Assembly: GCA_016180855.1 (NCBI GenBank)
Contig: JACPAL010000005.1
Span: 52,905 to 116,904 of the forward strand
From: Deltaproteobacteria bacterium
GTDB lineage: Bacteria > UBA10199 > JACPAL01
Length of the DNA: 64,000 nt
Direction of reading: 5' to 3'
Positions 12,610 to 30,040 of the stretch are shown here, piece by piece (positions within the stretch are counted from its first letter, which is position 1; the number at the start of each line of letters is the position of its first letter). The notes below the pieces were generated by a model. The model saw only the letters and a program-made list of their open reading frames with translations, was not told the DNA's origin and made no database searches. Both the position numbers and the translations under genes were made by a program.

Positions 12610-12621
12610 GGCGGTTATCCC

Positions 12622-12637
12622 TGCAAGCGGTATGCCG
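12622..12637 (-). promoter_or_regulatory. Candidate sigma-54 -24/-12 promoter (cGGCATaccgcTTGCA on the minus strand) ahead of the Cys-rich repeat gene
   Basis: GG/GC spacing is correct, but the leader would be only a few nt long (near-leaderless). Confidence 0.3.
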
Positions 12638-12742
12638 CACAGAAATTTAGGGAAATCGGTTTATTTTCGATAAAAACTGACCTCATAATAAGAAAACCCG
12701 GAAAAGAGATTCCATTCAATTTGGAATGAGGAACGTTTATTC

Positions 12743-13783
12743 TTACAGCCCCAGATCTCGCATCTTGTTGTAGAGGGTCCGCGAGGTAATCCCCAGCAAT
12801 TCAGCCGCCTTTCCATGATGCCCACCGGTCTTCTTCAAGGCATCGATAATCATCTGCCTTTCGGTCTCTTGTGCCTTTTTGCGGACGGCATCCGGCAGAC
12901 TGACCTCGCCCAGTATCGGTACATGAATCTCAGGATCGATTTTTTTGGGTCCGACTTGAGCCTTCTGAACCTCCACCGGGAGGTCATTCACCTCGATCTG
13001 GTTTTTGGCAACCACCATTGCCCGTTTAATGACATTGCGGAGTTCCCTCACATTTCCAGGGTAATGGTAGGCCTGAAGTTTCTGCATTGCCGTTGGAGAA
13101 ATTTCGACCACCTTATGCTGGATCGCATCCTGAAACTTCACGAGAAAGCGGTTTGAGAGCATCGGAATATCTTCTCTCCTCTCCCGAAGGGGGGGGATGG
13201 AGATCGGGAATTCATTCAAGCGGTAAAAAAGATCCATTCGGAATTTCTTCTCCTTGGCCAGCTCCTCCAGATCGGTATTCGTGGCGGCGATAATTCGGAT
13301 GTCAGTCCGGATCGACTTGCGCCCTCCGATCCGTTCAAACTCCCGCGATTCCAGAAAACGGAGGAGTTTGGCCTGAACCGACGTCGGGATGTTGGAGACC
13401 TCATCGAGAAAGAGTGTCCCTCCGTTGGCCGTCTCCAGTTTTCCCTGAAGTGTGGCATCTGCGCCTGTAAAGGAGCCCTTTTCATGTCCGAACAGTTCAC
13501 CTTCAATGAGCGTTTCCGGAATCGCGGCGCAGTCAATCGCAACGAAAGGCCCCTTGGAGCGCGTCGAGAGCTGGTGGATAACCCGGGCGGTTAACTCTTT
13601 TCCGGTCCCGGATTCCCCTGTCAGGAGGACGTTGACATCCGCCTTCGCAACCGAACGAACCAGGCCATGAAGGACCGCCTTTTGAACATTTTCAGATGAG
13701 AGCATGAACGCCTCGAGGTCCGACATCTCGGCCACCTCAAGCTTTAGCTCCTCAACCTCTTTTTGATAATCGGCATCGAGCAT
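12743..13783 (-). CDS. Sigma-54-dependent transcriptional activator (enhancer-binding protein) with no N-terminal sensory/receiver domain; AAA+ sigma-54 interaction domain plus Fis-type HTH
   Basis: Walker A GESGTGKE, GAFTGA-type loop (GHEKGSFTGA), C-terminal HTH (AAELLGITSRTLYNKMRDLGL); only about 50 aa precede the AAA+ domain. Confidence 0.85.
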   Translation of the reverse strand: MLDADYQKEVEELKLEVAEMSDLEAFMLSSENVQKAVLHGLVRSVAKADVNVLLTGESGTGKELTARVIHQLSTRSKGPFVAIDCAAIPETLIEGELFGHEKGSFTGADATLQGKLETANGGTLFLDEVSNIPTSVQAKLLRFLESREFERIGGRKSIRTDIRIIAATNTDLEELAKEKKFRMDLFYRLNEFPISIPPLRERREDIPMLSNRFLVKFQDAIQHKVVEISPTAMQKLQAYHYPGNVRELRNVIKRAMVVAKNQIEVNDLPVEVQKAQVGPKKIDPEIHVPILGEVSLPDAVRKKAQETERQMIIDALKKTGGHHGKAAELLGITSRTLYNKMRDLGL

Positions 13784-13877
13784 TTGGACGATCCCCCAAT
13801 TTCCGGAAAACTTTTACCACCTATTGTTTAAATATGGAAGGAGTTTTCCGAATTGGTTTTTTTAAGGTGGTGTTTAA

Positions 13878-13975
13878 GTACTTCGACTCGTAATTACCAT
13901 GACGTATCTGAAAAGCCAAAAAAATCAATCAAATTACTCGCTCAGCACTAGTCCTGAGTGAATAAATTCGTCACC
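13878..13975. repeat. 98-bp repeat element, copy A (inverted copy at 29940-30037)
   Basis: 97/98 identity to the reverse complement of 29940-30037; contains CTCAG-cactagtc-CTGAG hairpin. Confidence 0.9.
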
Positions 13976-14089
13976 TAAGATAATAGAGGGGGTCAAAAAA
14001 GCGACAGCTAAGGGGTTGATTTGCACCTGATTTTTGAACTTTCTGTTTTAAAACAAGTTTGTTATTAGCGGGTTAAGAAATTGGGTCTT

Positions 14090-14105
14090 TGGCACGTCGA
14101 TTGCT
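14090..14105 (+). promoter_or_regulatory. Sigma-54 promoter (TGGCAC-gtcga-TTGCT) upstream of the 14156 secreted-protein gene
   Basis: Consensus -24 GG / -12 GC elements with canonical spacing about 50 bp upstream of the ATG. Confidence 0.6.
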
Positions 14106-14155
14106 TCATTTGGGAAGTGGGGGTGGGGTTTTATGCTTAACGGGGAAGGGATGGT

Positions 14156-15424
14156 ATGAGAGGGTCATTTAAAAAACTTCTTAAACTGACCACGGTATTT
14201 GCTGTTGCCCTTCTTTTTGTCGGGGAGGGCGCCTGCCCGACCCCGGATGGTGGTGACACGACGGGGACGAGCACCGGTACGACAACCAGCAGTAGTGGGA
14301 CCGCTGCACCTTCTCGGGGTAGCTCCAGCAGCAGTTCAACCGATTCGATTGATGATATTGATGAATCTTCCGATGATGCGTCGGAGGAAGAGCAGCCTGG
14401 TGTTGTTCCTCCAACCGCCGGGCCGGTGGAGATACCTGGTCCGTCTGCCTTCCGCTTTCCAACGAGGGTAACAATCGATATCTCCTCGTTGACGGGGGAG
14501 GCCAACCGTTCACAATCTTTGGTGGTTCAAAACCGGTCTAAGAGTGTCTGTACCGGCGGTGTCTGTAGTCTCATCACGATGGGGACTGATCTCGTCGATC
14601 TTTTACAGGAGATTGGGGACAAGGTCTTTTCGTCCGACGGGATGTTTAGCTGTATTGCGGTTGAGAGCTCCGCCACACAAACCTCTTATGACGGCAAGGT
14701 TTGTTCAGCTGACGATACCTACGGAGGTTGGGATCTTCATATTGATTTTGGAACCTTCTCTTCTTCGCGCACCGAGACCTCCCAATGCTCCGGTAGCACC
14801 GTTTCTCTGCCGATCTGTTTCCGTGTCTGGATCCGATCGGATAGTTCCTCTTCATGGCAACGATTTATGGCAGGATTTTTGAACACGGCCCCCGGTGATA
14901 CAACGGGTGAAGGGGCGGGTGCCTTCTGGCTCCACCCGAGTGATTTCTTTCCCAGTGATTCATTGCCGGGCATCGACATGCAGTTTAAATGGAATCATGA
15001 GGACTTAACTGACAGGGGGACGGAGATTGCTTATGGCTACCATGTTGGACAATCGGATGGTGAGAAGGGGAGGGTCCTTGTGGCGGATGAAGAGCTCTCT
15101 TCACTCTGCTTCTCGAAACTCGTGAAGGTTCGGAAATACCGGGAGAGTTTCCTGTTTGGAGGGGCCTCTGACCTGAAGACAGTTGGATTGTGGGATGAGT
15201 GCCAGCCGTACTGGAGCGGTCAGCTCGTACACGACAACATCGGCGGACCGATCGATTGGCAGGACCGGAGTATCTGTGCCTACCGGCTGACCGGGGAGAG
15301 GATCAATTATGGTATTTGTACTAATGCGGGGATTAACTCAGCCTCCGAGAATTTTATTGATCTGCCGGAGACGGCGGAATTTACTTATCCCTCAACAACT
15401 GTTTTCCCTTTAAGTCCTCCGTAA
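14156..15424 (+). CDS. Secreted/lipoprotein-like hypothetical protein with a Ser/Thr/Gly-rich linker
   Basis: Signal peptide then Cys (VGEGAC), low-complexity TTGTSTGTTTSSSG...SSSSSS linker, about 300-aa C-terminal domain; no recognisable family. Confidence 0.6.
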   Translation: MRGSFKKLLKLTTVFAVALLFVGEGACPTPDGGDTTGTSTGTTTSSSGTAAPSRGSSSSSSTDSIDDIDESSDDASEEEQPGVVPPTAGPVEIPGPSAFRFPTRVTIDISSLTGEANRSQSLVVQNRSKSVCTGGVCSLITMGTDLVDLLQEIGDKVFSSDGMFSCIAVESSATQTSYDGKVCSADDTYGGWDLHIDFGTFSSSRTETSQCSGSTVSLPICFRVWIRSDSSSSWQRFMAGFLNTAPGDTTGEGAGAFWLHPSDFFPSDSLPGIDMQFKWNHEDLTDRGTEIAYGYHVGQSDGEKGRVLVADEELSSLCFSKLVKVRKYRESFLFGGASDLKTVGLWDECQPYWSGQLVHDNIGGPIDWQDRSICAYRLTGERINYGICTNAGINSASENFIDLPETAEFTYPSTTVFPLSPP

Positions 15425-18400
15425 GGAGTGCTCCTGTTCAAGCGAACGGAGATTCTGAGATCGCAGTGGATCCTCCAGATAGGCAACTCGATACTCCTCC
15501 GGCAGCAGGGAGGCGATCTCCTGATAAATCGTGCCCCCCCTTTTATCCGGAATTTGGGCGTACGCCTCCGCAGCGATCTCCATGAGGCCGTTTTGTTCAC
15601 AGGTTTTTGCGAGTTCACGCAATCTGTCGTTAAGCTTTTCCTCCGGTGGGAGTCCCCCCTTTTTTTGAAGGGTCAGATTTAGAAGCTGCATTCGAAGAGA
15701 GAGCTCCTGATCGAAACGATCGGAAAGCTTTGCAGCGCTTTGGTACTCCGCCGCCGATCTCTCCGACTGCCGCACCTCAAGGTAGATCTCCGCCAGTGCA
15801 TAGTGTCCCCAACCGTTCAAGAGGGGATCGGCTGTCTTTGTTGCCTGATCGACAACCTCTTCGAACTTCTCACGCGCCTTTTCATGGGATTGGATTGCCC
15901 GGTAGTAGTAGCCCCAGGCCAGTGTGATCCATGCGGTGAGTCCGGGGAAAGGGCCGGTTGAAGTCAGTGAATTAATCCTGCAGAGCATGTCATGTGCTGT
16001 TTGCGAGAGACCGAGGTTCAGATAGAGGAAGGCCCCCTTGAGATAATTTTGTATGATCTGATAAGGGGGGCTCACAAGATTCCGGTATCGGGTTGCCTCT
16101 TCAAGATATTGAATCGCCTCGTGGTACCGTCCTCGGCGTTGCGCGATCGTGATGAGGTTGTCGAGCATGATGAGGATATTATGGAGGTCACCAAGCTCCT
16201 TGGAGAGTGAAAGGGACTCCATAAAATAACGGTCGGCGTCTGTCACCTGTTGTCCCTGAAGCTCAATAAAGCCGAGCTGACTTAAGCTGACGGCGATCTG
16301 GTGCTTCTCTCCCAACTTTCGAAACAGCTCCAGTTTCTCTTTTTCAAACCGCCGTGCCTCATCAATCTGACCGGTGAGGGAGAGGGCGAGTCCCAGATTG
16401 TTGTTGATGAGGAGGCGGAATTTTTCCTTGTCGGGAGTGTTGGGGGAGGGGAGGGTTGTTTTAAAGAGGGTGATCGCCTTCTGGAACTCCCGGGTTTGAA
16501 CATAAACGTTGGCGAGCGCGTTCATCAGCTCACTATGGAGGGGGTCCTTGTCATCGCTCTCCTGAAGTGCCTCAACATAAAATTCTGCTGCCTCATGAAA
16601 TTTTCCGGACCGTGTCAGGACCCAGCCCATCAGCTTTCGTTCCTCCAGAGACAGTTTTTCACGGGGAGGAAAAAGGCGGAGTGCGTCGTTGGGCCGGCCT
16701 GCCAAGACAAGCAGGGGGATCAACTTTTTTTTAACCTCGAGAGTCCCCTTTTTGTCCTTGGTGAAAGACTGGAGATAATCCTTGTAGTTTTCAATCGCCC
16801 GCCGGGTCTGAAAAGTCGACTGATAGTAGGAACCGAGTTCCAGAAGATATCGCTTGGCCCACCGCTTTTCGCCCGATTCAAAGGCGTAGGCGACGAGATC
16901 TTCCAGCGACGGATCTTTCTCCTTCTGTGTGCTGTGCAGGATTCTCTTGCCCTTTTTTTGGCGGAGCAGTTTTTTTTGCCGTTGTTGCAAGAGACGCACG
17001 AGTGCCTCGTTTGGAATCTGGTAACGGGCCTCCATCTGACCGAAGGTTGACTGTCGGTTCAGCAAGCCCCGTTCCACAAGGGACGGAACAAAGATGGCTA
17101 GTTGTGTCATCGGGAGAGCCGAAGAGTCGGCCAGTTCTTCCAGCGTGATGCTTTTTCTCCAGAGGGCCGTTGTTTCAAGGATCGTCTGGGCTTCGGGAGC
17201 AAGCGTTTCGAGATTGTTTTGATAGAGATTTTCAATGGTATCAGGCAGCCTTCCTTCCCCTTTTCCCTCAAGGTAGTATCGGGCCCCTTCTGCAACGAGT
17301 AGCGGAATGCCGGAAGAGAAGGAGGAGAGCCATTCCTCAAATTCGGGCGGTACCTTTTTTCCTCCGAGGAGTTCAGTGAAGTAGAGGCCGATCTCCTCCG
17401 TTGAGAGTGGAGGGAGGGGGTGGATTTTTGCCTTTTGGAAAAGATTGGCGAATGCCCCGTGCGAGGGGAGTGTCCCTTGCCAACTGAGCATGAGACAGAC
17501 GGTCCCGATCTCTCTTTGAACCTGTGCCAGCCACTCGGCGAACAACGGGTCCGAGTCCTGCAGATCATCGGCAAACAGGATCAGCGGGGCCTTCTTGTGA
17601 ACGGTCTTGAGGGAGTGTTCAAAAAAATCGGCCGCTGTTTTGGAAGGAGGGAGCTCAAGCCCCTTGCGTAGTTGTGAGAAGGCATCCTTCTGGTTGAAGC
17701 GGTCAAGCCATAGACAGGGGATCTCCTTGAATTCTGCCTGATACTTGATCTCATGGAGCAGCCGGCTTTTGCCGATTCCCAATTCGCCCGTAAAAAGAAA
17801 CGCCTGACCCGCCGGGTTGTTCAACGCCTCCCTCGCCTCCTCCATCTCCTTTTGACGTCCCACGAGCCGCCCCTCTTCCGGCAGGGGGGAGGCACTGCTG
17901 GCCTCTCTCTCTCCGTAACGATTTTGCGTGTGGAGGTTGATCCAGTTGATTGCGCTGAAACCTTGCGAGACCCGTTCGCTTGGCTCTTTTTTGAGCAACA
18001 TCTCAAGGAGCTTCCGGAGATAAGCAGGAATTTTTGATTCCTCCTCCTCGTTCCAGGTGACTGTTTTTCTCAAGTGCCAGTTGAGTGCCTCGCCAGGGTC
18101 CTTTTCACTGAATGGAAAATGACGGGTGAGTGCCCGATAAAAAACGATTCCTAGCGAGTAAAGATCGACACGACGATCGGTATGGGGCGATTTCAAAAGA
18201 ATTTCAGGGGGTGAATAAAAAAGAGTACCGGCCAGCTGTTTTAACGGCTGGGTCTCAAGATGGGCAACGCCGAAATCGAGCAGTTTTACCTTTTTCTCTT
18301 CGTTGATGAGGATGTTAGGGCATTTGATATCAAAATGAATAATCCTGTGTTTGTGGAGATAGTCGAGGATCTCCAGTGTTTGGATGGCGAGTTCCTCTAT

Positions 18401-18730
18401 CTCCAAAACCGATTTGTTGGCAGTCCCCTTGAAAAAATCTTCTCCCCGAACAAAGTCGGAGAGGATGAGGTAACGTTTCAGTTTGTCGGAATAGACAAGG
18501 TCATGTGGCTTGCAGAGACCAGGGTGTTTGAGCTGGGTTAGCAGGAGGAATTCATTTTTAAAGGACGCAATCCGGCTCGGATTCGATGCGGCATAGAGAA
18601 TCTTGAATGCATATTCCCGGCCAGCCTCATCGAGGGCCAGGTAGACCTCCCCGAACCCCCCCTGTCCGATCTTTCGGATCAGTCGATAATCCTTCCCTGC
18701 GATATGAAGTTCTGTTGTTTCTTCTCCCAC
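15410..18730 (-). CDS. Ser/Thr protein kinase fused to an AAA/STAND-like ATPase and TPR repeats (1106 aa)
   Basis: Complete Hanks kinase motifs (GQGGFGEVY, AFKIL, HFDIKCPN, DFG, SPPE); P-loop FTGELGIGKSRLL; C-terminal half TPR-like; 15-bp convergent overlap with the 14156 gene. Confidence 0.8.
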   Translation of the reverse strand: MGEETTELHIAGKDYRLIRKIGQGGFGEVYLALDEAGREYAFKILYAASNPSRIASFKNEFLLLTQLKHPGLCKPHDLVYSDKLKRYLILSDFVRGEDFFKGTANKSVLEIEELAIQTLEILDYLHKHRIIHFDIKCPNILINEEKKVKLLDFGVAHLETQPLKQLAGTLFYSPPEILLKSPHTDRRVDLYSLGIVFYRALTRHFPFSEKDPGEALNWHLRKTVTWNEEEESKIPAYLRKLLEMLLKKEPSERVSQGFSAINWINLHTQNRYGEREASSASPLPEEGRLVGRQKEMEEAREALNNPAGQAFLFTGELGIGKSRLLHEIKYQAEFKEIPCLWLDRFNQKDAFSQLRKGLELPPSKTAADFFEHSLKTVHKKAPLILFADDLQDSDPLFAEWLAQVQREIGTVCLMLSWQGTLPSHGAFANLFQKAKIHPLPPLSTEEIGLYFTELLGGKKVPPEFEEWLSSFSSGIPLLVAEGARYYLEGKGEGRLPDTIENLYQNNLETLAPEAQTILETTALWRKSITLEELADSSALPMTQLAIFVPSLVERGLLNRQSTFGQMEARYQIPNEALVRLLQQRQKKLLRQKKGKRILHSTQKEKDPSLEDLVAYAFESGEKRWAKRYLLELGSYYQSTFQTRRAIENYKDYLQSFTKDKKGTLEVKKKLIPLLVLAGRPNDALRLFPPREKLSLEERKLMGWVLTRSGKFHEAAEFYVEALQESDDKDPLHSELMNALANVYVQTREFQKAITLFKTTLPSPNTPDKEKFRLLINNNLGLALSLTGQIDEARRFEKEKLELFRKLGEKHQIAVSLSQLGFIELQGQQVTDADRYFMESLSLSKELGDLHNILIMLDNLITIAQRRGRYHEAIQYLEEATRYRNLVSPPYQIIQNYLKGAFLYLNLGLSQTAHDMLCRINSLTSTGPFPGLTAWITLAWGYYYRAIQSHEKAREKFEEVVDQATKTADPLLNGWGHYALAEIYLEVRQSERSAAEYQSAAKLSDRFDQELSLRMQLLNLTLQKKGGLPPEEKLNDRLRELAKTCEQNGLMEIAAEAYAQIPDKRGGTIYQEIASLLPEEYRVAYLEDPLRSQNLRSLEQEHSLRRT

Positions 18731-18777
18731 CGATAGAGGAGCTTACTGTATTTTGAAGCACCAAGAGAAGGGTAATT

Positions 18778-19683
18778 TTAACTGTAAAATTCTTTAACCT
18801 TCTGTTCCATCTCATGAAGGTGCCGGCTGTCGACCACCTTCCCGCGTCGGAGGGCCAGACGGTTGTCACAGAATAGTTTGACGGCCTTTGCCAGGACATC
18901 CGCCTCGAGCTTTTTCCCTTTTACCGCAATCGACTCGAGCGATTCTTTGGATTTGTTGATCCGGAACGCCCCCTGCGTAATGATCGGCCCCTGATCCAGA
19001 TCGGTGGTGACAAAATGGGCGGTGACACCGACAACCTCTACCCCTTTATGGAATGCTTGGGAATAGGCACGGGCTCCCGGGAACGACGGGAGGAGTGACG
19101 GATGGATGTTGATAATTTTTCCCTCATAGCGAAAACAGAATTCCGGTGAGAGGATTTGCATGTACCGGGCCAGTACAATGAGGTCGATTTCATGGCGGGA
19201 GAGTTCCTTTAGAATTTTCTGCTCCTGTTCCTGCTTTTTCGCCGAAGGAAAATAATGGAAGGGGATTTTGTATTGATCCGCGGTTGGTTTGAGTTCTCGT
19301 CGGTTGGAAAGAATCAGACGGGCCTGTCCGTGAATCTTTCCCTCTCTCATCTTCTGTAAAATGGTTGTGAGGCAGTGGGGTTCCTTTGTAACCAGAAGGG
19401 CCACATTTTTGATCCGGCGCTCCTCCAGGACCTCCAGGGTGATCTCCATCCCGATCGAGCGCCCCACTTTTTTTAACCCTTCGCGGAAGAGCGGGAGGGG
19501 TCCTCTGAGACCTGATAGATCGACCTGCATGTTCATGACCAGAAAACCTTCAAGGATCCTCTGGTCGATATCTTCGATATTCAGATTGTTCTGGAAAAGA
19601 TGGGTCGTCACCGTGGCGATGATCCCCTTGCGATCCGGTCCTGCGACCCGTATCCGGGCCATTTTTTTACCCCCTGCCAGCAT
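18778..19683 (-). CDS. purU: Formyltetrahydrofolate deformylase
   Basis: N-terminal ACT domain plus formyltransferase domain blocks (HPSLLPSFPGARAY). Confidence 0.8.
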   Translation of the reverse strand: MLAGGKKMARIRVAGPDRKGIIATVTTHLFQNNLNIEDIDQRILEGFLVMNMQVDLSGLRGPLPLFREGLKKVGRSIGMEITLEVLEERRIKNVALLVTKEPHCLTTILQKMREGKIHGQARLILSNRRELKPTADQYKIPFHYFPSAKKQEQEQKILKELSRHEIDLIVLARYMQILSPEFCFRYEGKIINIHPSLLPSFPGARAYSQAFHKGVEVVGVTAHFVTTDLDQGPIITQGAFRINKSKESLESIAVKGKKLEADVLAKAVKLFCDNRLALRRGKVVDSRHLHEMEQKVKEFYS

Positions 19684-19779
19684 GGAATTCCATGGAGATT
19701 ACCACATTTTGGGCTGATTCTAACCTAAAATTTCACACCCTTGACATTCCGTCAGTCGTTCTCTAAAGATCACCCCCCT

Positions 19780-20031
19780 ATGGCAGTGAAACTAAGACTC
19801 ATGCGTGTTGGTGCTCGTTCAAAGCCGTCTTATCGGATTGTGGTGATCGATTCCCACGCTGCTTGCAAGGGGGCGGCCCAGGAGGTTGTCGGCTTCTACG
19901 ACCCTCGGCAGGGGATTGAAAAGGCAAAGGTTGATGGTGACAGGGTTCGTTATTGGCTTGGGTGTGGCGCCCAACCGTCTGTGGTCGTTGGACATATCCT
20001 CAAGAAGGCAGGTGTTGGGAAGGCTGCTTAA
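19780..20031 (+). CDS. rpsP: 30S ribosomal protein S16
   Basis: [22 protein letters not shown]...GFYDP pattern; the ORF opens upstream but the conserved start is this Met. Confidence 0.85.
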
Positions 20032-20044
20032 TCGGAGTCGTCTC

Positions 20045-20284
20045 ATGTCGGACATGAAAAACCTCGTTGAGGTGATGGCAAAGTCGCTGGTTGATAATCC
20101 TGACAAGGTCGAAGTGATTGAGGTGGGGGGAGAGCAGACGACCGTCTATGAACTGAAGGTGGCCAAGGAGGACTTGGGTAAGATCATCGGCAAGGAGGGG
20201 AGAAACGCCCGGTCGATGAGGACAATTCTTGGGGCCGCCTCCACAAAGATTGGCAAAAAGTCGATTCTTGAAATCATCGAATAA
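20045..20284 (+). CDS. KH-domain RNA-binding protein (UPF0109/YlqC-like)
   Basis: [19 protein letters not shown] GxxG motif; conserved position after rpsP. Confidence 0.75.
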
Positions 20285-20290
20285 ATTCTG

Positions 20291-20983: not shown

Positions 20984-21046
20984 CCACAAGGTATCGTGGT
21001 GCAGGATGTTGACAGCAGGGGTCGAACTGTTTAGGTCATCCAACCG

Positions 21047-21829
21047 ATGGGGAAATTTTTTAGTCTCTCTCTTTTGATCTGTGTTGTTTTTTTTGCCTGT
21101 TCCAAGGGCAACTATGTTTACAAGAGCCCCAATCGTCTCGATTGGGTTCGCATTGCGAAGGCGAAAAAGCAGGAGAGAGGAGGGGGGCTTCGTCATCCGT
21201 ACGACTTTGACTCAAGGCAAATGAGGGAGATTTTGAGCTCTCTCCGCTTCAACAAGAAGTTTCTGATCCAGAGGGATATTGAGGAGCAACAGCTCTTTCA
21301 GGAGAGGCATGTGGAGTACCTGCTTCCGTATCTTCTTCAAGCGTTTCGAAGGGTGGGGCCGGAAGAGGTTGTCTCTGTCTCCTTTTTTACCCAGAGCCGC
21401 AAGTATGGCCTGGCCAACGACCGCTTAACGATTTTCCGGGCCTATCTCCAGGAGGACGGGCTCCATCTCCAGTTTCAAAAGATTTACGCAAAACTCATTG
21501 GAGATCGAACGACACAAGGTTCACTTCAGGCGACGCAGGAGGCGAGGGGGATTGGCGTCACCCTGGAATTACAGCCAGGACAAAACCGGATTTCCTGGGA
21601 TCCTGAGGAGATTGTTTTTGATCTTAATGTTTTTACGAAGAATGGAATCCGTAACAACGTCAAAAATACAGCCGGCCCAAAATTCTCGAATCCCAAACCG
21701 GAAAAGGTCCCTCCCAAAACACTTGATGCAAGGGATCGACTCAAAGAGCTCGAGCGTCTCAGGCAAGAAGAATTGATCACCGAAAAGGAATACGAGAAAA
21801 AGAGGAAAGAGATCCTAAAGGATTTGTAG
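21047..21829 (+). CDS. Lipoprotein with a C-terminal SHOCT-like motif
   Basis: Signal/lipobox (VVFFACS); C-terminal LKELERLRQEELITEKEYEKKRKEIL resembles a SHOCT domain. Confidence 0.55.
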   Translation: MGKFFSLSLLICVVFFACSKGNYVYKSPNRLDWVRIAKAKKQERGGGLRHPYDFDSRQMREILSSLRFNKKFLIQRDIEEQQLFQERHVEYLLPYLLQAFRRVGPEEVVSVSFFTQSRKYGLANDRLTIFRAYLQEDGLHLQFQKIYAKLIGDRTTQGSLQATQEARGIGVTLELQPGQNRISWDPEEIVFDLNVFTKNGIRNNVKNTAGPKFSNPKPEKVPPKTLDARDRLKELERLRQEELITEKEYEKKRKEILKDL

Positions 21830-22942
21830 GTCGCGGGGGAGGATGGAGAGGATCTCACAACCTTTATGGGTGACATAAACGTCATCCTCAATGCGAACCC
21901 CACCCAGTTTTTCGTAATAGAGACCCGGTTCGACGGTTACAACCTGTCCTTTTTTGAGGAGGGTACTTCTGGGACCGATCCGGGGTGGTTCGTGGATATC
22001 AAGGCCGAGCCCATGCCCTGTCGTATGGATAAAGCCCTCCGGCCTCCCGTTTTTGAAGTCCGTCTTGAAACCCTGCTCTTCCATCGTTTTGGCGACGGCG
22101 GCATGGACATCACGCGCATCAACGCCGGAACGGACAAGCGAGAATCCTTTCGCCTGCGCCTTCCGCACCGCTTCATACATTGAAATCACCTTTGAAGAAG
22201 GGGTTCCCTTGAAAACCGTTCGTGTCACGTCGCCGTGATAGCCGGACTCCAGTGACTTGGGGAAGACATCCAGCACGATTGTTTGGTACGGTTGAAGCGG
22301 TCCAAAACCGATACAGTGCGGGTCAGCCGCCTGTTTGCCACAGGCAACGATCGTCTTTTGTCCCAGGTAACCCCGTTCCATCATTTTGAGCTCCATCAAG
22401 TGGCGCAGTTTCTCGCTTGTGAGTGGTGCGCCGTTCCAGAGGAGCTTGTTCCCGCGGATCCGGGTGCCCCGGATTGTCTGAATCGCAAAACGGATCGCCT
22501 CTTCGGTCGCGCGGATGCTGTTCACAATCTTTTTTTTCTCTCCTTCGGATTTGATCTGGCGTTCGGGATAAAACGGATCAGGAATCGCATCCACCGTAAA
22601 TCCTTTTTCTTCCAGAAGCCGCGCCAGCCGGATCGGAAAATAGGAGGGGACCTCGAGGGAGGTGATTTTTCTTTCGTGCAGAACGGTGGTAAGGATCTCT
22701 ATTTCACTAACCTCCTTCTTCCCCTGTGACTTGAGCTTTCTTGAATAGGAGGAGGTCGAGATGACCTCATCCACCTCCGCCTCTTTTTTGGCGCGACCGT
22801 ATTCAAGATCGGACATGAGCAGGCTTTTTTTGCCCCTCTGCTCAATAAAGATGACCGGGTCCGGTGCGGAGAAGCAGGTGGCCCAATAGACATCGGCACA
22901 GGTCTCGGGACAGGCGATAATGAGGCGTGCTTTTTGCGACAT
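21815..22942 (-). CDS. M24-family Xaa-Pro aminopeptidase/dipeptidase (creatinase-like N-terminal domain plus pita-bread fold)
   Basis: M24 metal-ligand blocks (HGLGLDIHE; VEPGLY; GGVRIED). Confidence 0.75.
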   Translation of the reverse strand: MSQKARLIIACPETCADVYWATCFSAPDPVIFIEQRGKKSLLMSDLEYGRAKKEAEVDEVISTSSYSRKLKSQGKKEVSEIEILTTVLHERKITSLEVPSYFPIRLARLLEEKGFTVDAIPDPFYPERQIKSEGEKKKIVNSIRATEEAIRFAIQTIRGTRIRGNKLLWNGAPLTSEKLRHLMELKMMERGYLGQKTIVACGKQAADPHCIGFGPLQPYQTIVLDVFPKSLESGYHGDVTRTVFKGTPSSKVISMYEAVRKAQAKGFSLVRSGVDARDVHAAVAKTMEEQGFKTDFKNGRPEGFIHTTGHGLGLDIHEPPRIGPRSTLLKKGQVVTVEPGLYYEKLGGVRIEDDVYVTHKGCEILSILPRDLQIL

Positions 22943-23100
22943 GAATTAAATTCCATAGCATGTCGGACCCCGCTCGGCAACTGGGGTTGTAAGACATCAA
23001 TTTAGGGCATTTATCCTTCCTGTAGAAGGTCCTCTAAAAAAACAGGTGTTGATTTATCTTTTAATTTCGGATGGTTGGCAGACGATTTTTTTCAATCACC

Positions 23101-23115
23101 TGGTACGTATCTTGC
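23101..23115 (+). promoter_or_regulatory. Candidate sigma-54-like promoter (TGGTAC-gtatc-TTGCT) ahead of delta-60 gene 1
   Basis: GG/GC spacing is correct; -24 deviates (TGGTAC); would give a near-leaderless transcript. Confidence 0.3.
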
Positions 23116-23130
23116 TCAAGTATACGAGTG

Positions 23131-25455
23131 ATGCGGATTAGAGAGGCCCTTTTTATATCCTTTTTGTCGATCGTTCTTTCGGTCCCTCTTCATTCGGCCC
23201 CGGGGGATCTCGATTTTACCTTTGGCCTAGAAGGGGTTGGATTGACAGACTTTGAGCAGGAGATCGACGGGGTTGCTGATATCGCCATTCAACCGGACGG
23301 GAAAATAATTGTGGTCGGAACGATGAAGGAGGCGAGCCACCAGTCGTTTGCGGTCGCCCGGTTTCTCTCCGATGGCTCTCTTGATACCACCTTTGGCAAT
23401 GACGGTCTCGTTACGGACGACTTTGGCGGAGTAGGGGTCAATCAGGCCTCGGCAGTTGCTGTCAGCAATAATGGAAAGATTATTGTTGTCGGTCGTTCGG
23501 GACTTTATATCGGTGTCCTTCGTCTGACGCCTCAGGGAGCCGTTAATTGGAGGGTAAGACCCAATCCGTACCCCTGGGTTGATATCGCGACGGATGTTTA
23601 TACGCATCCCAATTTAGGCAATATTCATATTGCGGGAATCACCGGCTATTCGTCGACCTGGGTTCCGATTATCGGTTGTCTCCATGACACTGGAACTCCT
23701 TGCACCTTTTTTGGTCAGTGGGAGGAGGGGCGGCCAGGATGGAATGACGCAAACTTCCCCGATACGACACAAGACGTCGCCTCATCCATTGCCTATGATT
23801 CCCATAATGAGCGATTCATCCTGGGGGGATTTGCGGGTGATGGAACGAGTGACCGTTTTGGTCTTGTCCAGTTTGACCTCAAGGGAGATTTGAGGACGAG
23901 TTTCGGGACGAGTGGTTACGTGAGACGCGATATCAGCGGTTCGACAATGGAAAGGATGACCGAGATTGCGGTTCAGGAGTGGGATCAGAAGATTGTGGCG
24001 GTCGGTTTCGGGCAGGTCTCCGGTAATAATCAGATCGTCGTTGCTCGCTACAACATCGATGGGACTTGGGATAACAGCTTCAGCAGCGATGGGTCGACAA
24101 TAACGAATGTCCCCGGTTGTACGAATGCAAAGGCGGCGAGTGTTGCGATCCAGGAAGACCGAAAGATTGTCGTTGCGGGTACCTGCCGTGAGAGTAGCGG
24201 GACACCGCATTTCACCCTTATTCGCTATAACACCAACGGGTCGATTGATACGACATTTGGAACAAACGGTTTCATGACACTTTCCCTCCCCGGAACCTCA
24301 ACGGGCGGTGAAGGGTATGCTGTGCAACTCCAGGGGGATGGTCGGATTCTTGTCGGTGGTATTGCGGATGAAGAGCTTGCCGTTGCCCGGTACTATCACG
24401 ATAATGCGATGGGGGTTACATTAAGTCTGACGGGAGAGATTCCCACAACGATCATTCCCGAACAGACGATCAACGTCGGTCTCCTTGTTCAGAGTGACGG
24501 TCCTGACGACGGTTCTGCTGAGTTAACGGCCTATTTCCCTCTGCAGACGGAATTTGTCTCCTCCTCTCTCTCCGGCTGTACGTCGACGGTGGTAAATTAT
24601 TGCGGTCTGCTCCACACCACGACCGTTTGCGGAGATCACCGGCGGGTTCGATGTCCTGTTGGGACGCTTGCTTCGGGGGCTTCTCTGCCGGTCACCCTCT
24701 CCGTCCGTCCCAAGGCGGTTGGCCCGTTTGAGAGTCGCGTTGAAGTTGTCGGGGAGTTTTTGGATTTTGATCTGTCTAATAATGTAACATCCTGGGGACG
24801 AACCGTCGTGGCTGCGGCGAATCTTGGTGTCACGATTGAGAATGGATCATCCCTGGTTGTTGGAGATGAATCGAGTTTTCGCGTCTCTGTTGAGAACCAT
24901 GGCCCCAATAATACGACGGGAGTTGTCTTGACGCTTGAGCTTTCTGACAGTGCTATTTTTGAATCGACCAGTTCCAGCCTCTGTCATGGTGAGTCACCGG
25001 TCATCTGTGATATTGGCTCGCTGGCGTCCGGTGCCTCCTTTGAGGTTGAGTTAACATTCTCCTCCAATCAGGAGGGGAAGATCCTGCTCGATGCCTCTAC
25101 CTCCTCCGCAATTATGGATCCAGACAGCTCGGATAACACAAAAAGAGGAGAGATAACCTCCTCATTGTCGGAAGAGGAGATTGAAGAGGAGGAGAGCCGT
25201 CTCTGTTTCTTCAATGGTTCCCGTTGTCGGGATGAGGAGACCGAGGAGGAGGAGCCTCCCTCCGGTTGCCAACCCGGTGATCCCGGTTGTAATACGACGG
25301 GGCAAGGCAACCTGAATCAGACAGTTGCAGAGGCCGGTGGTTGCGGTTGCCGGATCGCCTCCAATACGAGTGGCCCCGATTCAACAGCCCTTCTCTTCCT
25401 GTTTTTCCTGATTCCACTTGCCTGGGTACGTTTTGGTAGAGACTGGGGTCTGTAA
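23131..25455 (+). CDS. Secreted delta-60-repeat (beta-propeller) protein with DUF11/CARDB-like surface-repeat domains and a C-terminal GCGC-type sorting signal (MYXO-CTERM-like)
   Basis: Repeated LDTTFGNDG...NGKIIVVG units; DUF11/CARDB-like segments; tail AGGCGCRIASNTSGPDSTALLFLFFLIPLAWVRFGRD; start taken at MRIREALF (signal peptide). Confidence 0.7.
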   Translation: MRIREALFISFLSIVLSVPLHSAPGDLDFTFGLEGVGLTDFEQEIDGVADIAIQPDGKIIVVGTMKEASHQSFAVARFLSDGSLDTTFGNDGLVTDDFGGVGVNQASAVAVSNNGKIIVVGRSGLYIGVLRLTPQGAVNWRVRPNPYPWVDIATDVYTHPNLGNIHIAGITGYSSTWVPIIGCLHDTGTPCTFFGQWEEGRPGWNDANFPDTTQDVASSIAYDSHNERFILGGFAGDGTSDRFGLVQFDLKGDLRTSFGTSGYVRRDISGSTMERMTEIAVQEWDQKIVAVGFGQVSGNNQIVVARYNIDGTWDNSFSSDGSTITNVPGCTNAKAASVAIQEDRKIVVAGTCRESSGTPHFTLIRYNTNGSIDTTFGTNGFMTLSLPGTSTGGEGYAVQLQGDGRILVGGIADEELAVARYYHDNAMGVTLSLTGEIPTTIIPEQTINVGLLVQSDGPDDGSAELTAYFPLQTEFVSSSLSGCTSTVVNYCGLLHTTTVCGDHRRVRCPVGTLASGASLPVTLSVRPKAVGPFESRVEVVGEFLDFDLSNNVTSWGRTVVAAANLGVTIENGSSLVVGDESSFRVSVENHGPNNTTGVVLTLELSDSAIFESTSSSLCHGESPVICDIGSLASGASFEVELTFSSNQEGKILLDASTSSAIMDPDSSDNTKRGEITSSLSEEEIEEEESRLCFFNGSRCRDEETEEEEPPSGCQPGDPGCNTTGQGNLNQTVAEAGGCGCRIASNTSGPDSTALLFLFFLIPLAWVRFGRDWGL

Positions 25456-25485
25456 ACCTTCCTTTGAATTCGGTCATCATCTCAA

Positions 25486-25510
25486 CACCATGAAAGCAAT
25501 GGTATTTTTT
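25486..25510 (+). terminator. Weak Rho-independent terminator after delta-60 gene 1
   Basis: ACCAT-gaaagca-ATGGT hairpin followed by ATTTTTT. Confidence 0.4.
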
Positions 25511-25521
25511 AACGATCGTAT

Positions 25522-25537
25522 TGGCATTTCACTTGCA
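25522..25537 (+). promoter_or_regulatory. Sigma-54 promoter (TGGCAT-ttcac-TTGCA) for delta-60 gene 2
   Basis: Canonical -24/-12 spacing; ATG at 25552 with an aagg RBS in between. Confidence 0.6.
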
Positions 25538-25551
25538 GTTCTACCTAAGGC

Positions 25552-27396
25552 ATGAGGAAAATATACCTTACTCTGTTCGCGCTCCTTTTAATGACCGGTC
25601 AGCTTTTTGCGGGCCTTGATGATTTAGATACGAGCTTTGGCCCGGCTGGGACCGGGATTGTCACGCTCGATCTGGACGTAGCGGACGCGAGTGACAAGAC
25701 GGTTATCAACGATGTTGAGATTCAAGCGGATGGCAAGATCGTCGTCGCGGGATATCATCTGCAGGGAACCGATAATGACATTGTTCTGGCCCGGTTTAAT
25801 GCCGATGGGACGATTGATAGTTCATTCGGAGCGGATGGTAATGGTGTTGTTATTACCGATTTGGGAACCGATCAGGATATCGGTTATGCGCTCTCGCTTG
25901 GCTCTAGTGGTGGCAAAATTGTCGTTGCGGGTGAGAAGGACGGAAATTTTGCGGTCCTTCGCTATAACACCAATGGGACTCTCGATACGAGTTTTGACAC
26001 CGACGGCATTGTGACAACCGACTTTGGGGGTGCCGATACCGCACGGGATGTTGTTGCTATCTTTGGCGGGGGAATCGTTGCTGTGGGATACTCTGTGGGG
26101 TCAGGGGCTGCGACCGACTTCGCCCTGGCCAAATATACAAGCTCTGGTGCCCTGGATCCCGCCTTTGATGGGGCCTCGTCCGGCAATGGAAAATTCAAGA
26201 CCGATTTTGGGAGTTCTGACAAGGCGTATGCCTTTGCCTTTGTTGGTTCCCGGCTTATTGTTGCCGGTCAGTCCGCAAACAATTTCGCCCTAGCCAAGTA
26301 TAATGCCACTACGGGGGCACTCGATACGACCTTTGATGGGGATGGAAAGCTCACGACCGATTTTGGCGGCTCTGATGCGGCCTACGCGATAAAGACAGTC
26401 GGGACGACCTCTCTCATTGTTGCCGGCAAGGGTGGAAATGACTTTGCCATGGCGAAATACTTGAACTCCAACGGGGCGCTCGATACGACCTTCAGCGGTG
26501 ACGGGAAGCTCACGACCGATATCGGGGCCTCATCCGTTGACTATGCCAATGACCTTGTGATCGACAATTCCACCAGTACAATTCTTGTTGCCGGAAAGGC
26601 GGGGGGCGATTTTGGGATTGCCCGTTACGATTTCAGCGGCACTCTTGATCCTGCTTTTGATTCGGATGGGAAGCTCACCCTCAATTTGGGGGGTGATCAG
26701 GACATTCCGACCTCCATTGAGCTGCTGTCTAACGGCAGGTTTCTTGTTGGCGGAAAGAAGGGGGTTGGGGGCAGTGTGGGAGAGATGGCGCTCGTCCAAT
26801 ACGGCTCTTACTCGGCCGATGCCAGTGTCTCCCTTACAGCGAGTGCTGATTCGATCCTCGTCGGATCGGAGGTCACTTATACGATTGGGCTTTCCAATAA
26901 CGGGTTGGATACAATGACGGTCTATGGTCTCGATGCTGACTTCGATTCATCGTTTGAATTTGTCTCTGTCGCAATCACCCAAGGGACCTGTGAGTTTTAT
27001 GAGGGGGATAACGAGCTTAATTGTGGAGGTATTGGCCCCTTGGCAGGTGGAGGGTTTGTTGAGGTGACATTGGTCTTGAAGGCAACGGTCGCTGGTTCGT
27101 TAAACGGCTGGGCCGGAGTCTCTGCCTCCCCCGACAATAACAGTTCAAACGACAGCATAACCCTTATTGTAACAGCGTTTGCTACGGAAGAGGAGTTGCC
27201 TCCTCGTTGCGGTGACGATCAGTGTGGTGGCGATGAGAGCTGCTCCAGTTGTGAGGCCCCTCTATCAATATTCCTGGTGGAACGACCCCCGGCACTCCTG
27301 GCACTCAACAGAATGTCACGGTTGGTGAGGCGGGCGGTGCGGGCGGTTGCTCGATGTTGGGAAACGAGTCGTCCCGATCAACCGACCTTCTGCTGA
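25552..27396 (+). CDS. Secreted delta-60-repeat protein with DUF11/CARDB-like domains; the C-terminal sorting tail is displaced into another frame (frameshift near 27250-27270)
   Basis: Signal peptide MRKIYLTLFALLLMTGQLFA; delta-60 repeats; the alternate frame from about 27251 to about 27466 encodes GEAGGAGGCSMLGNESSRSTDLLLTILLTGISLLMIWRD, matching paralog 1's tail. Confidence 0.7.
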   Translation: MRKIYLTLFALLLMTGQLFAGLDDLDTSFGPAGTGIVTLDLDVADASDKTVINDVEIQADGKIVVAGYHLQGTDNDIVLARFNADGTIDSSFGADGNGVVITDLGTDQDIGYALSLGSSGGKIVVAGEKDGNFAVLRYNTNGTLDTSFDTDGIVTTDFGGADTARDVVAIFGGGIVAVGYSVGSGAATDFALAKYTSSGALDPAFDGASSGNGKFKTDFGSSDKAYAFAFVGSRLIVAGQSANNFALAKYNATTGALDTTFDGDGKLTTDFGGSDAAYAIKTVGTTSLIVAGKGGNDFAMAKYLNSNGALDTTFSGDGKLTTDIGASSVDYANDLVIDNSTSTILVAGKAGGDFGIARYDFSGTLDPAFDSDGKLTLNLGGDQDIPTSIELLSNGRFLVGGKKGVGGSVGEMALVQYGSYSADASVSLTASADSILVGSEVTYTIGLSNNGLDTMTVYGLDADFDSSFEFVSVAITQGTCEFYEGDNELNCGGIGPLAGGGFVEVTLVLKATVAGSLNGWAGVSASPDNNSSNDSITLIVTAFATEEELPPRCGDDQCGGDESCSSCEAPLSIFLVERPPALLALNRMSRLVRRAVRAVARCWETSRPDQPTFC

Positions 27397-27456
27397 CGAT
27401 CCTTCTGACGGGGATCTCTCTCCTCATGATCTGGCGGGACTCGCTCAAACGGACGA

Positions 27457-28551
27457 TTAAACATTAAATCTGAAGAAGAGGATATCGCCGTCCTTGACGA
27501 CGTAGTCTTTCCCTTCCAGGCGCATTTTCCCTGCCTCCCGGACCTTGAGTTCAGAGCCGTAGGTGAGCAGGTCATCATAATGGTAGCATTCAGCCCGGAT
27601 AAACCCTTTTTCAAAGTCGGAATGAATAATACCGGCCGCTTGCGGCGCCTTTGTCCCCCGATTGATCGTCCAGGCCCGTACCTCCTTCGGGCCGGCGGTG
27701 AAATAGGTTGTGAGGCCGAGCAAACGGTATCCGGCATGGGCGAGTTGGTCGAGTCCTGATTCTTTGAGTCCGATCTCCTTGAGAAAGGCAGGGCGTTCCT
27801 CCGGCGGGAGGGCGGCGATCTCCGATTCGATCTTTCCACTGATCGTCACGACCTCGGATCCCTGTTTTTGGGCCAGTTCACACAACGCCTCTACTTTTGC
27901 ATTGGATGAAGCAAGGTCCGACTCTGAGACATTGGCGACATACAAGATCGGTTTGGAGGTGAGCAGGAAGAGGTCTCTTATGAACGGCCTCTCCTCCTCT
28001 GAAAGTGGGACCGTTCTTGCGGGTCGTCCCTCCCCGAGCGCCTGTTGAACCTTTTGATAAACAGGGAGGCAGAGCGCGGCCTCCTTGTCTCCGACCTTCG
28101 CCTGCTTCTCCGTTTTTTCAAGTCGCTTGGTGATTGCCTCAAGATCGGCGAGCATCAGTTCCGTCTCAATCACACCGACATCCCGAAGCGGATCGACACC
28201 TCCATGGACATGAACGACATTTGCGTCGTCAAAACAGCGGACAACATGTGCGATCGCATCGACCTCGCGGATATGGGCGAGGAACTGGTTCCCCAGCCCC
28301 TCGCCTTTAGAGGCCCCCTCGACGAGGCCGGCGATATCGACGAACTCGATTGTTGTTGGGGTTGTCTTCTGCGGTTTGAAGATCTCGGTCAACTTCTGAA
28401 GCCGTTCATCCGGCACGGAGACGACGCCGACGTTCGGTTCAATTGTGCAAAACGGATAGTTCTCCGCCGCCACACCGGCGGCCGTCATCGCGTTAAAGAG
28501 GGTCGACTTGCCGACGTTGGGCAGTCCAACAATACCGCATCGAAATCCCAT
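27457..28551 (-). CDS. ychF: Ribosome-binding ATPase YchF/Ola1
   Basis: [16 protein letters not shown]1 motif, TGS C-terminal domain; the conserved start is the Met at MGFRCGIVG. Confidence 0.85.
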
Positions 28552-29865: not shown

Positions 29866-29939
29866 CTTGAATTGTTGGCACAACTTCTAGCCCTTGACCT
29901 GCTCTGCTGGTGTGACTAAATCCTTCGATTCATAAATTC

Positions 29940-30037
29940 GGTGACGAATTTATTCACTCAGGACTAGTGCTGAGTGAGTAATTTGATTGATTTTTTTGGC
30001 TTTTCAGATACGTCATGGTAATTACGAGTCGAAGTAC
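29940..30037. repeat. 98-bp repeat element, copy B (inverted relative to 13878-13975)
   Basis: Single mismatch against copy A; ends 3 bp before the apbC/mrp ATG. Confidence 0.9.
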
Positions 30038-30040
30038 TAA

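Follow-up and report, generated by a model that had tools for sequence, protein, structure and literature searches.

Sigma-54 promoters of exported-protein genes, a receiver-less NtrC1-type activator and a neighbouring STAND-type Ser/Thr kinase in a Deltaproteobacteria bacterium

The locus

The stretch of DNA analysed here, referred to throughout as the window, comprises 64,000 nt of contig JACPAL010000005.1 of a Deltaproteobacteria bacterium (assembly GCA_016180855.1, positions 52,905-116,904, forward strand). It carries the gene for a sigma-54 activator, or enhancer-binding protein (EBP), that has no receiver domain (12743-13783, minus strand), the gene for a 1106-aa Ser/Thr kinase (15410-18730, minus strand) and a set of sigma-54 promoter sites that stand before genes for exported proteins. 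The conclusion that the window holds a sigma-54 regulon of exported proteins together with a sensor-less EBP is solid. The kinase and activator genes lie on the same strand, 1.6 kb apart and with one other gene between them, and the kinase gene is found 47 nt downstream of purU, again on the same strand, such that it may be co-transcribed with this housekeeping gene.

The region 12610-27470 was described in the original prediction as a compact arrangement. A Pfam scan placed the housekeeping genes purU and trmD and an M24 peptidase gene between the kinase gene and two genes for delta-60 repeat proteins, and the region therefore does not constitute a single compact module. The delta-60 genes are 9-12 kb from the activator gene, whilst a further promoter, at 6025, is located 6.7 kb away on the opposite side; the remaining genes of the window are housekeeping genes. 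Among the scanned open reading frames of the window there was neither a HisKA nor a HATPase_c domain (and hence no cognate histidine kinase nearby), nor was there a pspA- or hrpV-like gene.

Sigma-54 promoter sites and the exported proteins downstream

Sites were scored with a 16-position matrix for the sigma-54 promoter, using 200 first-order Markov shuffles of the window as the null model. A site was taken to be in promoter position when it was intergenic and a same-strand start followed within 150 nt, which applies to 2.6% of the (position, strand) pairs of the window. A consensus search returned a perfect match at 14090 and matches with one mismatch at 23101, 25522, 6025, 60181 and, on the minus strand, 17061. 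The highest score in the window (18.6 bits) belongs to TGGCATgctccTTGCA (6025-6040, plus strand), upstream of the gene at 6108-6509. The perfect consensus, TGGCACgtcgaTTGCT (14090-14105, plus strand; 17.3 bits), is found 50 nt before the ATG at 14156, and both TGGTACgtatcTTGCT (23101-23116, plus strand; 17.2 bits) and TGGCATttcacTTGCA (25522-25537, plus strand; 16.0 bits) end 14 nt before an ATG, at 23131 and 25552, respectively. All four of these sites (16-18.6 bits) are intergenic and directed towards a gene, with the GG and GC doublets 10 nt apart. The leader between the 14090 promoter and its ATG contains the Shine-Dalgarno sequence GGGGAAGGGA, and this promoter is unaltered in the strain contig L001 amid surrounding substitutions and indels (contigs and proteins used for comparison are given here by L and P numbers). 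A fifth, weak sigma-54-like site, CGGCATaccgcTTGCA (12622-12637, minus strand; 12.8 bits), is found 12 nt before the GTG at 12609 and has the same doublet spacing; it is the position and the short-gap geometry that speak for this site, since chance alone would produce about two matches of 12.8 bits in a window of this size. All of the strain-level contigs (L001-L006) carry the site unchanged, which adds no information.

Matches of at least 16 bits were observed four to five times in the window against 0.15 expected, the maximum in the set of 200 shuffles being 2. Promoter positions are occupied by four of the top five matches and by five of the top nine (binomial p ~2e-6 and ~1e-6, respectively), and the gene downstream opens with a signal peptide at all five promoter-position sites, as compared with about 16 of the 54 genes of the window (~30%). 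The original prediction had listed four motifs. All of them are present, three as strong sites; the one at 23101, which had been regarded as weak, scored as strong, leaving the site at 12622 as the only weak one, and the strong site at 6025-6040, outside the range that was considered, had been overlooked. The association of the motifs with genes for secreted or surface proteins held for every promoter-position site, and the enrichment that had been proposed as a check was found, within the 64-kb window, both relative to the shuffles and at promoter positions. Two other high-scoring matches are intragenic, at 60181-60196 (plus strand; 16.2 bits) within an aldehyde dehydrogenase gene and at 17076-17061 (minus strand; 14.6 bits) within the kinase gene. 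These could be chance matches or intragenic sigma-54 sites, of the kind that has been reported in E. coli (PMC4591121).

The genes downstream of the promoter-position sites encode a varied set of exported proteins. The 6025 promoter precedes a gene for a small protein of 133 aa with thrombospondin-type-3-like Ca-binding repeats (6108-6509, plus strand), whose start at ATG 6108 was set by alignment with an orthologue in L092. This gene is probably in one operon with that for a small Cys-rich protein of 125 aa (6537-6914, plus strand), which has a signal peptide and a Cys-rich C-terminus and for which no Pfam match was found. Downstream of the weak site is the gene for a Cys-rich repeat protein of 485 aa with a signal peptide and no known domains (11152-12609, minus strand). 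This gene contains a 127-nt tandem duplication (88% identity; 11948-12206, repeat family D2) that yields two modules of ~44 aa with the pattern CGNxxCExGEDEYICPVCxDPSLPCPxGPCxxACEEDCF. The 14090 promoter precedes a gene for an exported or lipoprotein-like protein of 422 aa with a signal peptide (14156-15424, plus strand), the 3' end of which overlaps the convergent kinase gene. A five-member profile of the 422-aa family gave no Pfam or PDB match, a word-based homologue search returned only the protein itself and one orthologue, and the AlphaFold model (pLDDT 31.6) was unusable.

The remaining two promoters, at 23101 and 25522, precede genes for surface proteins that combine delta-60 repeats with DUF11. 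The first, a delta-60 repeat beta-propeller protein (23131-25455, plus strand), is encoded within a maximal open reading frame (23071-25455) that includes the promoter site itself; the correct start is ATG 23131, with which the signal peptide begins. The second occupies 25552-27396 (plus strand). The two proteins score 189.3 and 208.2 bits with the delta-60 model TIGR02608, whose cut-off is 76.5, and both match Pfam DUF5122 and DUF11. The tail of the first protein (25330-25455; ...GGCGCRIASNTSGPDSTALLFLFFLIPLAWVRFGRDWGL / ...AEAGGCGCRIASNTSGPDSTALLFLFFLIPLAWVRFGRDWGL) comprises a Cys motif, a hydrophobic helix and a basic end and is MYXO-CTERM-like, as would fit a Myxococcota-like organism. 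At E up to 0.01, an NCBIfam scan of this protein gave no match to a MYXO-CTERM model.

Conservation and upstream elements of the promoters

Similar promoter arrangements were found in other genomes. In L092, TGGCATtccggTTGCA occupies the same intergenic position as the 6025 promoter, after a DAGK_cat gene of 75% identity and before the orthologue (32% identity) of the gene at 6108-6509. In L091, the gene for an EBP with 59% identity to that of the window stands ahead of the promoter TGGCACgtcccTTGTA, after which comes the gene for a 785-aa delta-60 protein, which shares 33-39% identity with the two delta-60 proteins of the window. Upstream of the L091 promoter there is also an A/T palindrome, TTTCATTT-TG-AAATGAAA, similar to that described below for the 6025 promoter.

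Within the window, the promoters at 6025 and 25522 have more in common than the consensus. The window contains two copies, and no more, of a degenerate T-rich 15-mer, ATGGYATTTTTYAAC, each of them directly upstream of a sigma-54 promoter: as ATGGCATTTTTCAAC (5999-6013, plus strand), 11 nt upstream of the -24 element of the 6025 promoter, and as ATGGTATTTTTTAAC (25499-25513, plus strand), 8 nt upstream of that of the 25522 promoter. In addition, both promoters have the extended core TTGGCAT-N5-TTGCAGTT, and this extended common sequence suggests that the two promoters answer to one regulator. The first copy of the 15-mer is the right half of a perfect palindrome with 10-bp arms, TGTTGAAAAA-N6-TTTTTCAACA (5984-6019), and the T-rich element is a possible binding site for a regulator or site of DNA bending.

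Promoter-to-ATG spacing and predicted near-leaderless mRNAs

At both of the delta-60 promoters of the window, exactly 14 nt separate the last base of TTGCW from the ATG that opens the signal peptide. A gap of 13-14 nt was also found at the delta-60 gene of L091 and at all three promoters of a further locus, L178, the spacer sequences being unrelated. This gives six promoters in three genomes (23101-23133 and 25522-25554 in the window; 5684-5716 in L091; 20839-20808 and 5917-5886, both on the minus strand, and 22799-22831 in L178), all of them upstream of genes for exported proteins. When the gap was surveyed for all sigma-54 matrix matches in the compared sequence, 13-14 nt formed the main peak, with six of its seven cases coming from these genomes; a second cluster, at 16-18 nt, was seen in some Polyangia/Myxococcales loci. 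Transcription from sigma-54 promoters starts ~12 nt after the C of the -12 element. If the start is 12 nt after this C, then the six mRNAs would have leaders of 3-4 nt, with no room for a Shine-Dalgarno sequence, and the spacing, as read from the DNA, thus implies near-leaderless mRNAs. The predicted leaders of the 14090 and 6025 promoters are of normal length (~40 and ~57 nt, respectively).

The activator is a receiver-less NtrC1-type protein

The activator is a protein of 346 aa (the maximal open reading frame) that consists of the remnant of a coiled-coil linker, an AAA+ domain and a Fis-type helix-turn-helix (HTH) domain, with only ~38 residues ahead of the AAA+ domain. Pfam matches were found to Sigma54_activat (PF00158, 225.7 bits), AAA_lid_14 and HTH_8 (residues 306-342, E 1.2e-13). 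The motifs GESGTGKE, FLDEV, GSFTGA (the L1 loop), FRMDLFYRLN and VRELRN are all present and are invariant or nearly so in an alignment of relatives, and the GSFTGA variant of the loop is also found in the relatives P0006 and P0022. No match to the receiver family PF00072 was found in the protein, and a frameshifted or split remnant of a receiver was sought upstream of the gene in every frame and not found (tblastn, E up to 10). The identical protein is encoded on seven contigs, six of which, among the matches listed, come from six different samples or assemblies, and the truncation is therefore not an assembly error.

The near relatives of the EBP are, without exception, receiver-bearing response regulators of ~460 aa. 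In the nearest of these, P0002 (67% identity), residues 119-463 correspond to the window protein, and the alignment shows that the window protein has kept the linker helix. The receiver of P0002 is itself degenerate, with the phospho-acceptor D54 and the conserved T82 both replaced by N; distant relatives keep both residues. Among solved structures, the best matches were NtrC4 and NtrC1 of Aquifex aeolicus (4l4u, 1e-82; 1ny5, 2e-78), with PspF at 2e-59. In NCBIfam the protein is under every equivalog cut-off: the nominal top model is PrsR (TIGR02915, 341.8 against a cut-off of 502.6), and assignment to PrsR was rejected on this score, whilst the PspF models gave 293.7 against 443.55 bits (TIGR02974) and 249.5 against 529 (PRK11608). 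Judged from these alignments, the EBP is by descent an NtrC1-type regulator, one that appears to have lost the phospho-acceptor chemistry first and then the receiver. Searches of further genome and metagenome contigs with the EBP returned generic EBPs (42-49% identity) and one partial match at 55%, and these loci served as the negative control described below.

The Pfam matches and the missing receiver thus bear out the earlier description of an activator with AAA+ and HTH domains alone and no sensory domain. The suggested likeness to PspF holds for the two-domain layout but not for descent, given that the relatives are response regulators of ~460 aa and the closest solved structures are those of NtrC1 and NtrC4. 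Nor does it follow that control of such a protein has to come in trans. The AAA+ domains of NtrC1 and DctD are kept as an inactive dimer by the receiver together with the coiled-coil linker, and Lee et al. in 2003 and Doucleff et al. in 2005 are said to have found that removal of the NtrC1 receiver frees AAA+ assembly. Because the receiver represses assembly in these proteins, its loss may give a constitutive activator, and this is a serious alternative.

Other relatives of the EBP, at 55-56% identity, are encoded in operons of the order REC / 211-aa / PAS-HisKA / EBP beside gas-vesicle genes. A strong sigma-54 motif precedes gvpA at three such loci (L087, 11704-11719; L175, 7862-7877; L176, 5450-5465), which suggests that gas vesicles in these groundwater bacteria are under combined sigma-54 and two-component control.

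The kinase and its possible link to activators

The kinase gene (15410-18730) encodes a cytoplasmic Hanks-type Ser/Thr kinase-STAND NTPase-TPR protein of 1106 aa with a non-RD HFDIK catalytic loop. Its domains are Pkinase (residues 15-255, 8e-47), AAA_16 (288-407; 5e-7 and 30.8 bits, slightly under the Pfam cut-off of 32.6), TPR repeats (~700-1005; TPR_12, 7e-21) and a weak TPR_MalT match, and no hydrophobic N-terminus was seen in a signal-peptide survey of the window genes. The kinase motifs GQGGFG, AFK, HFDIKCPN, DFG and SPPE are intact, as are Walker A (GELGIGKS) and Walker B (LILFADD). With these domains in place and the catalytic residues intact, the protein is as it had been described, a Ser/Thr kinase fused to an AAA domain and TPR repeats; the prediction is of a catalytically active non-RD kinase with a functional P-loop NTPase attached.

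The list of kinase relatives begins with four orthologues at ~50% identity, and P0128 (1665 aa) and P0130 (1638 aa) are among the next-best matches. These two proteins are collinear with the whole of the window kinase (15-1100 versus 12-1129; 28-30% identity), have the same HFDIK loop and continue at the C-terminus into GAF, Sigma54_activat, AAA_lid_14 and HTH_8 domains with an intact GAFTGA or GSFTGA loop. Such EBP fusions account for 13 of 120 kinase relatives among the matches listed; in some other relatives the output is instead GGDEF, HisKA/HATPase, cyclase or PP2C, and from this range of outputs the kinase-STAND-TPR unit appears to act as a general input module. The window kinase has no GAF domain and is encoded separately from the EBP, the two genes not being fused.

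The arrangement of the window recurs in the diverged genome L086, where the kinase gene, a convergent exported-protein gene with overlapping 3' end and a divergent EBP gene stand in the same order (47%, 35% and 67% identity, respectively). It is thus the nearest relative of the EBP, the one with the degenerate receiver, that has the same kinase and exported-protein neighbours, and this recurrence in a diverged genome indicates that the placement of kinase and EBP is not accidental. As a negative control, ~160 unrelated EBP loci (1.9 Mb) were examined: a Hanks kinase of any type was found in the flanks of three, the STAND/TPR kinase module in none and a delta-60 gene in none. At the locus of the P0128 fusion (L178), the product of the divergent neighbour is homologous to the 422-aa protein (28% identity, E 2e-15), and three sigma-54 motifs are found no more than 10 kb from the fusion gene, each of them before a gene for an exported protein (a subtilase, one with faint Pfam matches of beta-propeller type and one without assignment). 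Synteny, control loci and fusions together give good comparative support to the putative link between kinase and activator and suggest that the activator may now be under the control of the kinase.

The surroundings of the other kinase orthologues differ. In L092 the kinase gene adjoins a gene for a REC-HisKA-HATPase hybrid kinase (10434-11576); the convergent 433-aa gene of this locus was considered as a member of the 422-aa family and has no detectable homology to it. In L093 (695-4752) and L094 (3570-4361) the kinase genes adjoin those for the ATPase and platform proteins of type II secretion or type IV pili, which hints that the kinase family may be tied more generally to envelope or secretion functions.

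Interpretation and alternative explanations

We regard as evenly balanced the explanation in which the window carries a portion of a sigma-54 regulon of exported and surface proteins whose local NtrC1-type activator receives its input from the kinase. In the mechanism proposed, the STAND NTPase and TPR region would sense a cytoplasmic ligand or protein and oligomerise, and oligomerisation would activate the N-terminal kinase or expose a TPR surface. The kinase would then govern hexamer assembly of the receiver-less EBP, through either Ser/Thr phosphorylation or TPR-mediated binding, and the EBP would hexamerise on the DNA near the five promoters and use ATP to open sigma-54 closed complexes. 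Input through an adjacent kinase-STAND-TPR protein would in this way replace a His-Asp relay. Transcripts from 23101, 25522 and probably 12637 would have leaders of 2-5 nt and be translated without a Shine-Dalgarno sequence. A broader proposal, which we offer tentatively and consider rather doubtful, is that HFDIK STAND kinases are dedicated inputs to sigma-54 activators, either fused or adjacent, that replaced an NtrC-type phosphorelay by way of a pseudo-receiver and serve a regulon of surface proteins, some of whose mRNAs are leaderless or near-leaderless owing to a 13-14-nt spacing.

A number of observations weigh against control of these promoters by the local activator and against kinase input to it. 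The matrix, which follows published frequencies, is approximate, and no rpoN gene was found among the scanned open reading frames of the 64-kb window. A 9-mer search over the five promoter regions for a common activator-binding site gave T-tracts only. In L086, L093 and L094, the gene orthologous to that at 14156 is preceded by a sigma-70-like promoter (TTGTCT-18-TATAAT in L086) and by no sigma-54 motif; a promoter conserved with that at 14090 was accordingly rejected, and sigma-54 control of this gene would be specific to this lineage. In L086, moreover, no sigma-54 motif of at least 10.5 bits was found in 10.9 kb despite the adjacent EBP gene. An adjacent EBP is missing at three of the five orthologous kinase loci (L092-L094), and it is the 422-aa exported family, not the EBP, that is the most constant partner of the kinase (window, L086, L093, L094 and L178). 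The EBP modules of the fusions are GAF-type and not NtrC-type (38-47% identity), so the fusions demonstrate the compatibility of the two kinds of protein rather than shared ancestry. The kinase-to-EBP circuit of the original prediction therefore stands in part: the synteny with L086 and the fusions indicate a placement that is not accidental, but the orthologous kinase loci without an adjacent EBP speak against such a link.

Several of these points would be accounted for if the EBP were a constitutively active, receiver-deleted NtrC1-type protein. Output would then be set by the amount of EBP or the availability of sigma-54, and the kinase would be unrelated to it, the adjacency being inherited synteny; the kinase would instead work with the 422-aa exported family or other targets. 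We consider this possible, both for the activator and for the kinase, though on the unlikely side. It is favoured by the closest solved relatives, NtrC1 and NtrC4, and by the retained linker helix, by the absence of an EBP neighbour from three of the five kinase loci when four of the five and the fusion locus keep an exported-protein neighbour, and by the position of the kinase gene just after purU, with which it is possibly transcribed. Were it correct, the locus would represent an ordinary sigma-54 regulon with a truncated activator. However, the fusion of the same kinase subfamily to EBP modules argues for direct functional coupling, the destroyed phospho-acceptor of the nearest relative indicates a changed input and not mere loss of control, and the kinase module was never encountered in the control EBP loci.

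The promoters could also be genuine and yet served, for the most part, by EBPs encoded elsewhere, with the local EBP controlling at most the 14156 gene and the 485-aa gene. Genomes of myxobacteria-like organisms usually have many EBPs, and this one presumably encodes others that are able to serve the distal promoters, which is a further point against the local activator as the common regulator. The distances are in keeping with such an arrangement (delta-60 genes 9-12 kb away with housekeeping genes between, and 6025 at 6.7 kb), as is the lack of an upstream binding motif common to all five promoters. We nevertheless consider it decidedly unlikely: in L091 a delta-60 gene with a sigma-54 promoter comes directly after the gene for a same-clade EBP (59% identity), delta-60 genes are absent from the ~160 control loci, and the 6025 and 25522 promoters share their extended sequence. 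That the motif matches are due to chance or to other elements, and that the genes are transcribed from sigma-70 promoters, is most improbable. The chance-level score of the site at 12637, the good intragenic matches at 60181 and 17076 and the sigma-70-like promoters of the 14156-gene orthologues would fit this explanation; the statistics of enrichment and position, the conservation across genomes and the intact EBP next door are against it, and a scan of 12.4-14.3 kb (12400-14300) for sigma-70 promoters and terminators gave nothing above shuffle expectation, the one sigma-70-like site being inside a gene.

Should input from the kinase to the activator prove true, its significance would lie in the control of sigma-54 activators, for which the textbook modes are an attached sensor domain or a dedicated anti-activator. 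Input from a STAND Ser/Thr kinase, fused or in trans, would add to these a third route, as yet uncharacterised, by which kinase signalling of the eukaryote-like kind is linked to promoter opening driven by AAA+ proteins. The series from a full two-component regulator through a pseudo-receiver to no receiver at all offers a concrete, testable case of signalling rewiring. Likewise, if the mRNA leaders prove to be as short as the fixed spacing between promoter and ATG implies, sigma-54 promoters would be shown to be able to drive leaderless genes, which would bear on how translation of surface proteins is initiated in little-studied groundwater bacteria.

Other features of the window

A 105-nt repeated element is found at 13874-13978, upstream of the activator gene, with an inverted partner at 29937-30041 (97% complementary). 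The pair encloses a 16-kb segment that contains the 14090 promoter, the 422-aa gene, the kinase gene, purU, trmD, the two delta-60 genes and ychF, and may act as a substrate for inversion or represent a small element that is mobile or repeated. The copy near the activator gene is 20 nt longer in the strain contig L001. The element contains an 18-bp palindrome, CTCAGCACTAGTCCTGAG, which was considered as an activator-binding site upstream of the activator gene and rejected, as it is part of the element that is repeated at 29.9 kb. The window also has two paralogous genes for AAA_14/DUF4143 ATPases (8226-9368 and, on the minus strand, 28615-29829). One of them is followed by a pair of small genes (9460-9873 and 9870-10190), the second of which has a nucleotidyltransferase-like GSRxxG...SDLDL motif, suggesting a toxin-antitoxin pair of the MNT/HEPN type. 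An Rfam search of 5-31 kb returned no match.

Comparison with known systems

The closest characterised likeness of the activator is to NtrC1 and NtrC4 of Aquifex (and to DctD-type proteins), with which it has in common a helical linker, an AAA+ domain with a GAFTGA-type loop and a Fis-type HTH domain. Relatives at 55-59% identity have the full REC-AAA+-HTH architecture and cognate PAS-HisKA kinases; in the window EBP, by contrast, the receiver is wholly absent and no histidine kinase is nearby, and the nearest relative has an Asp-to-Asn pseudo-receiver. The AAA+ plus HTH layout is the same as that of PspF and HrpR/HrpS. These EBPs without a regulatory domain are controlled in trans by PspA or HrpV (PMC7175178), and by analogy of layout it is plausible that the window EBP is also controlled by a separate protein. 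Unlike PspF, of which it is not a phylogenetic family member, its candidate partner is a kinase and not an anti-activator.

PrsK/PrsR/PrsT is a PEP-CTERM-box response regulator system in which the NtrC-type EBP PrsR is linked to genes for sorted surface proteins and to a TPR protein. The window EBP differs in lacking both a receiver and a PrsK partner, and its presumed targets do not end in PEP-CTERM tails, one of them having a MYXO-CTERM-like tail instead. In Myxococcus xanthus, EBPs with an FHA domain were reportedly described by Jelsbak, Givskov and Kaiser in 2005 and are thought to be controlled by Ser/Thr kinases, which makes them a precedent for input of this kind to sigma-54 activators in the delta-proteobacterial lineage. 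Those proteins have in FHA an input domain that binds phospho-threonine, whereas the window EBP has no input domain and is adjacent to a STAND/TPR kinase.

The uncharacterised fusion proteins such as P0128 and P0130 (Pkinase-AAA_16-TPR-GAF-Sigma54_activat-HTH_8) combine a kinase part collinear with the window kinase and a complete EBP, and the P0128 locus has both the 422-aa homologue and sigma-54 promoters. Full-text literature searches returned no paper on kinase-EBP fusions or on the control of EBPs by STAND kinases, and EBPs go unmentioned in a 2018 review of Hanks-type kinases. The fusions are single polypeptides with a GAF domain, as opposed to two genes, no GAF domain and an NtrC-type-derived EBP in the window.

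The nearest described parallel to the kinase, regulator and divergent target of the window is the PknK-VirS-mymA system of Mycobacterium tuberculosis, which follows the same logic; there, the gene for the kinase lies close to that for the regulator, and virS and mymA are transcribed divergently. PknK is a soluble kinase of ~1100 aa with a STAND-type region at its C-terminus; it phosphorylates the transcription factor VirS and so controls the mymA operon (PMC4601284). The window kinase resembles PknK in architecture, being likened to it by domain layout, but differs in having the non-RD HFDIK loop; moreover, VirS is an AraC-type activator that works with sigma-70, and the organisms are unrelated. 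The locus is thus a variant on the themes of NtrC-type EBPs and PknK-like STAND kinases rather than a new category.

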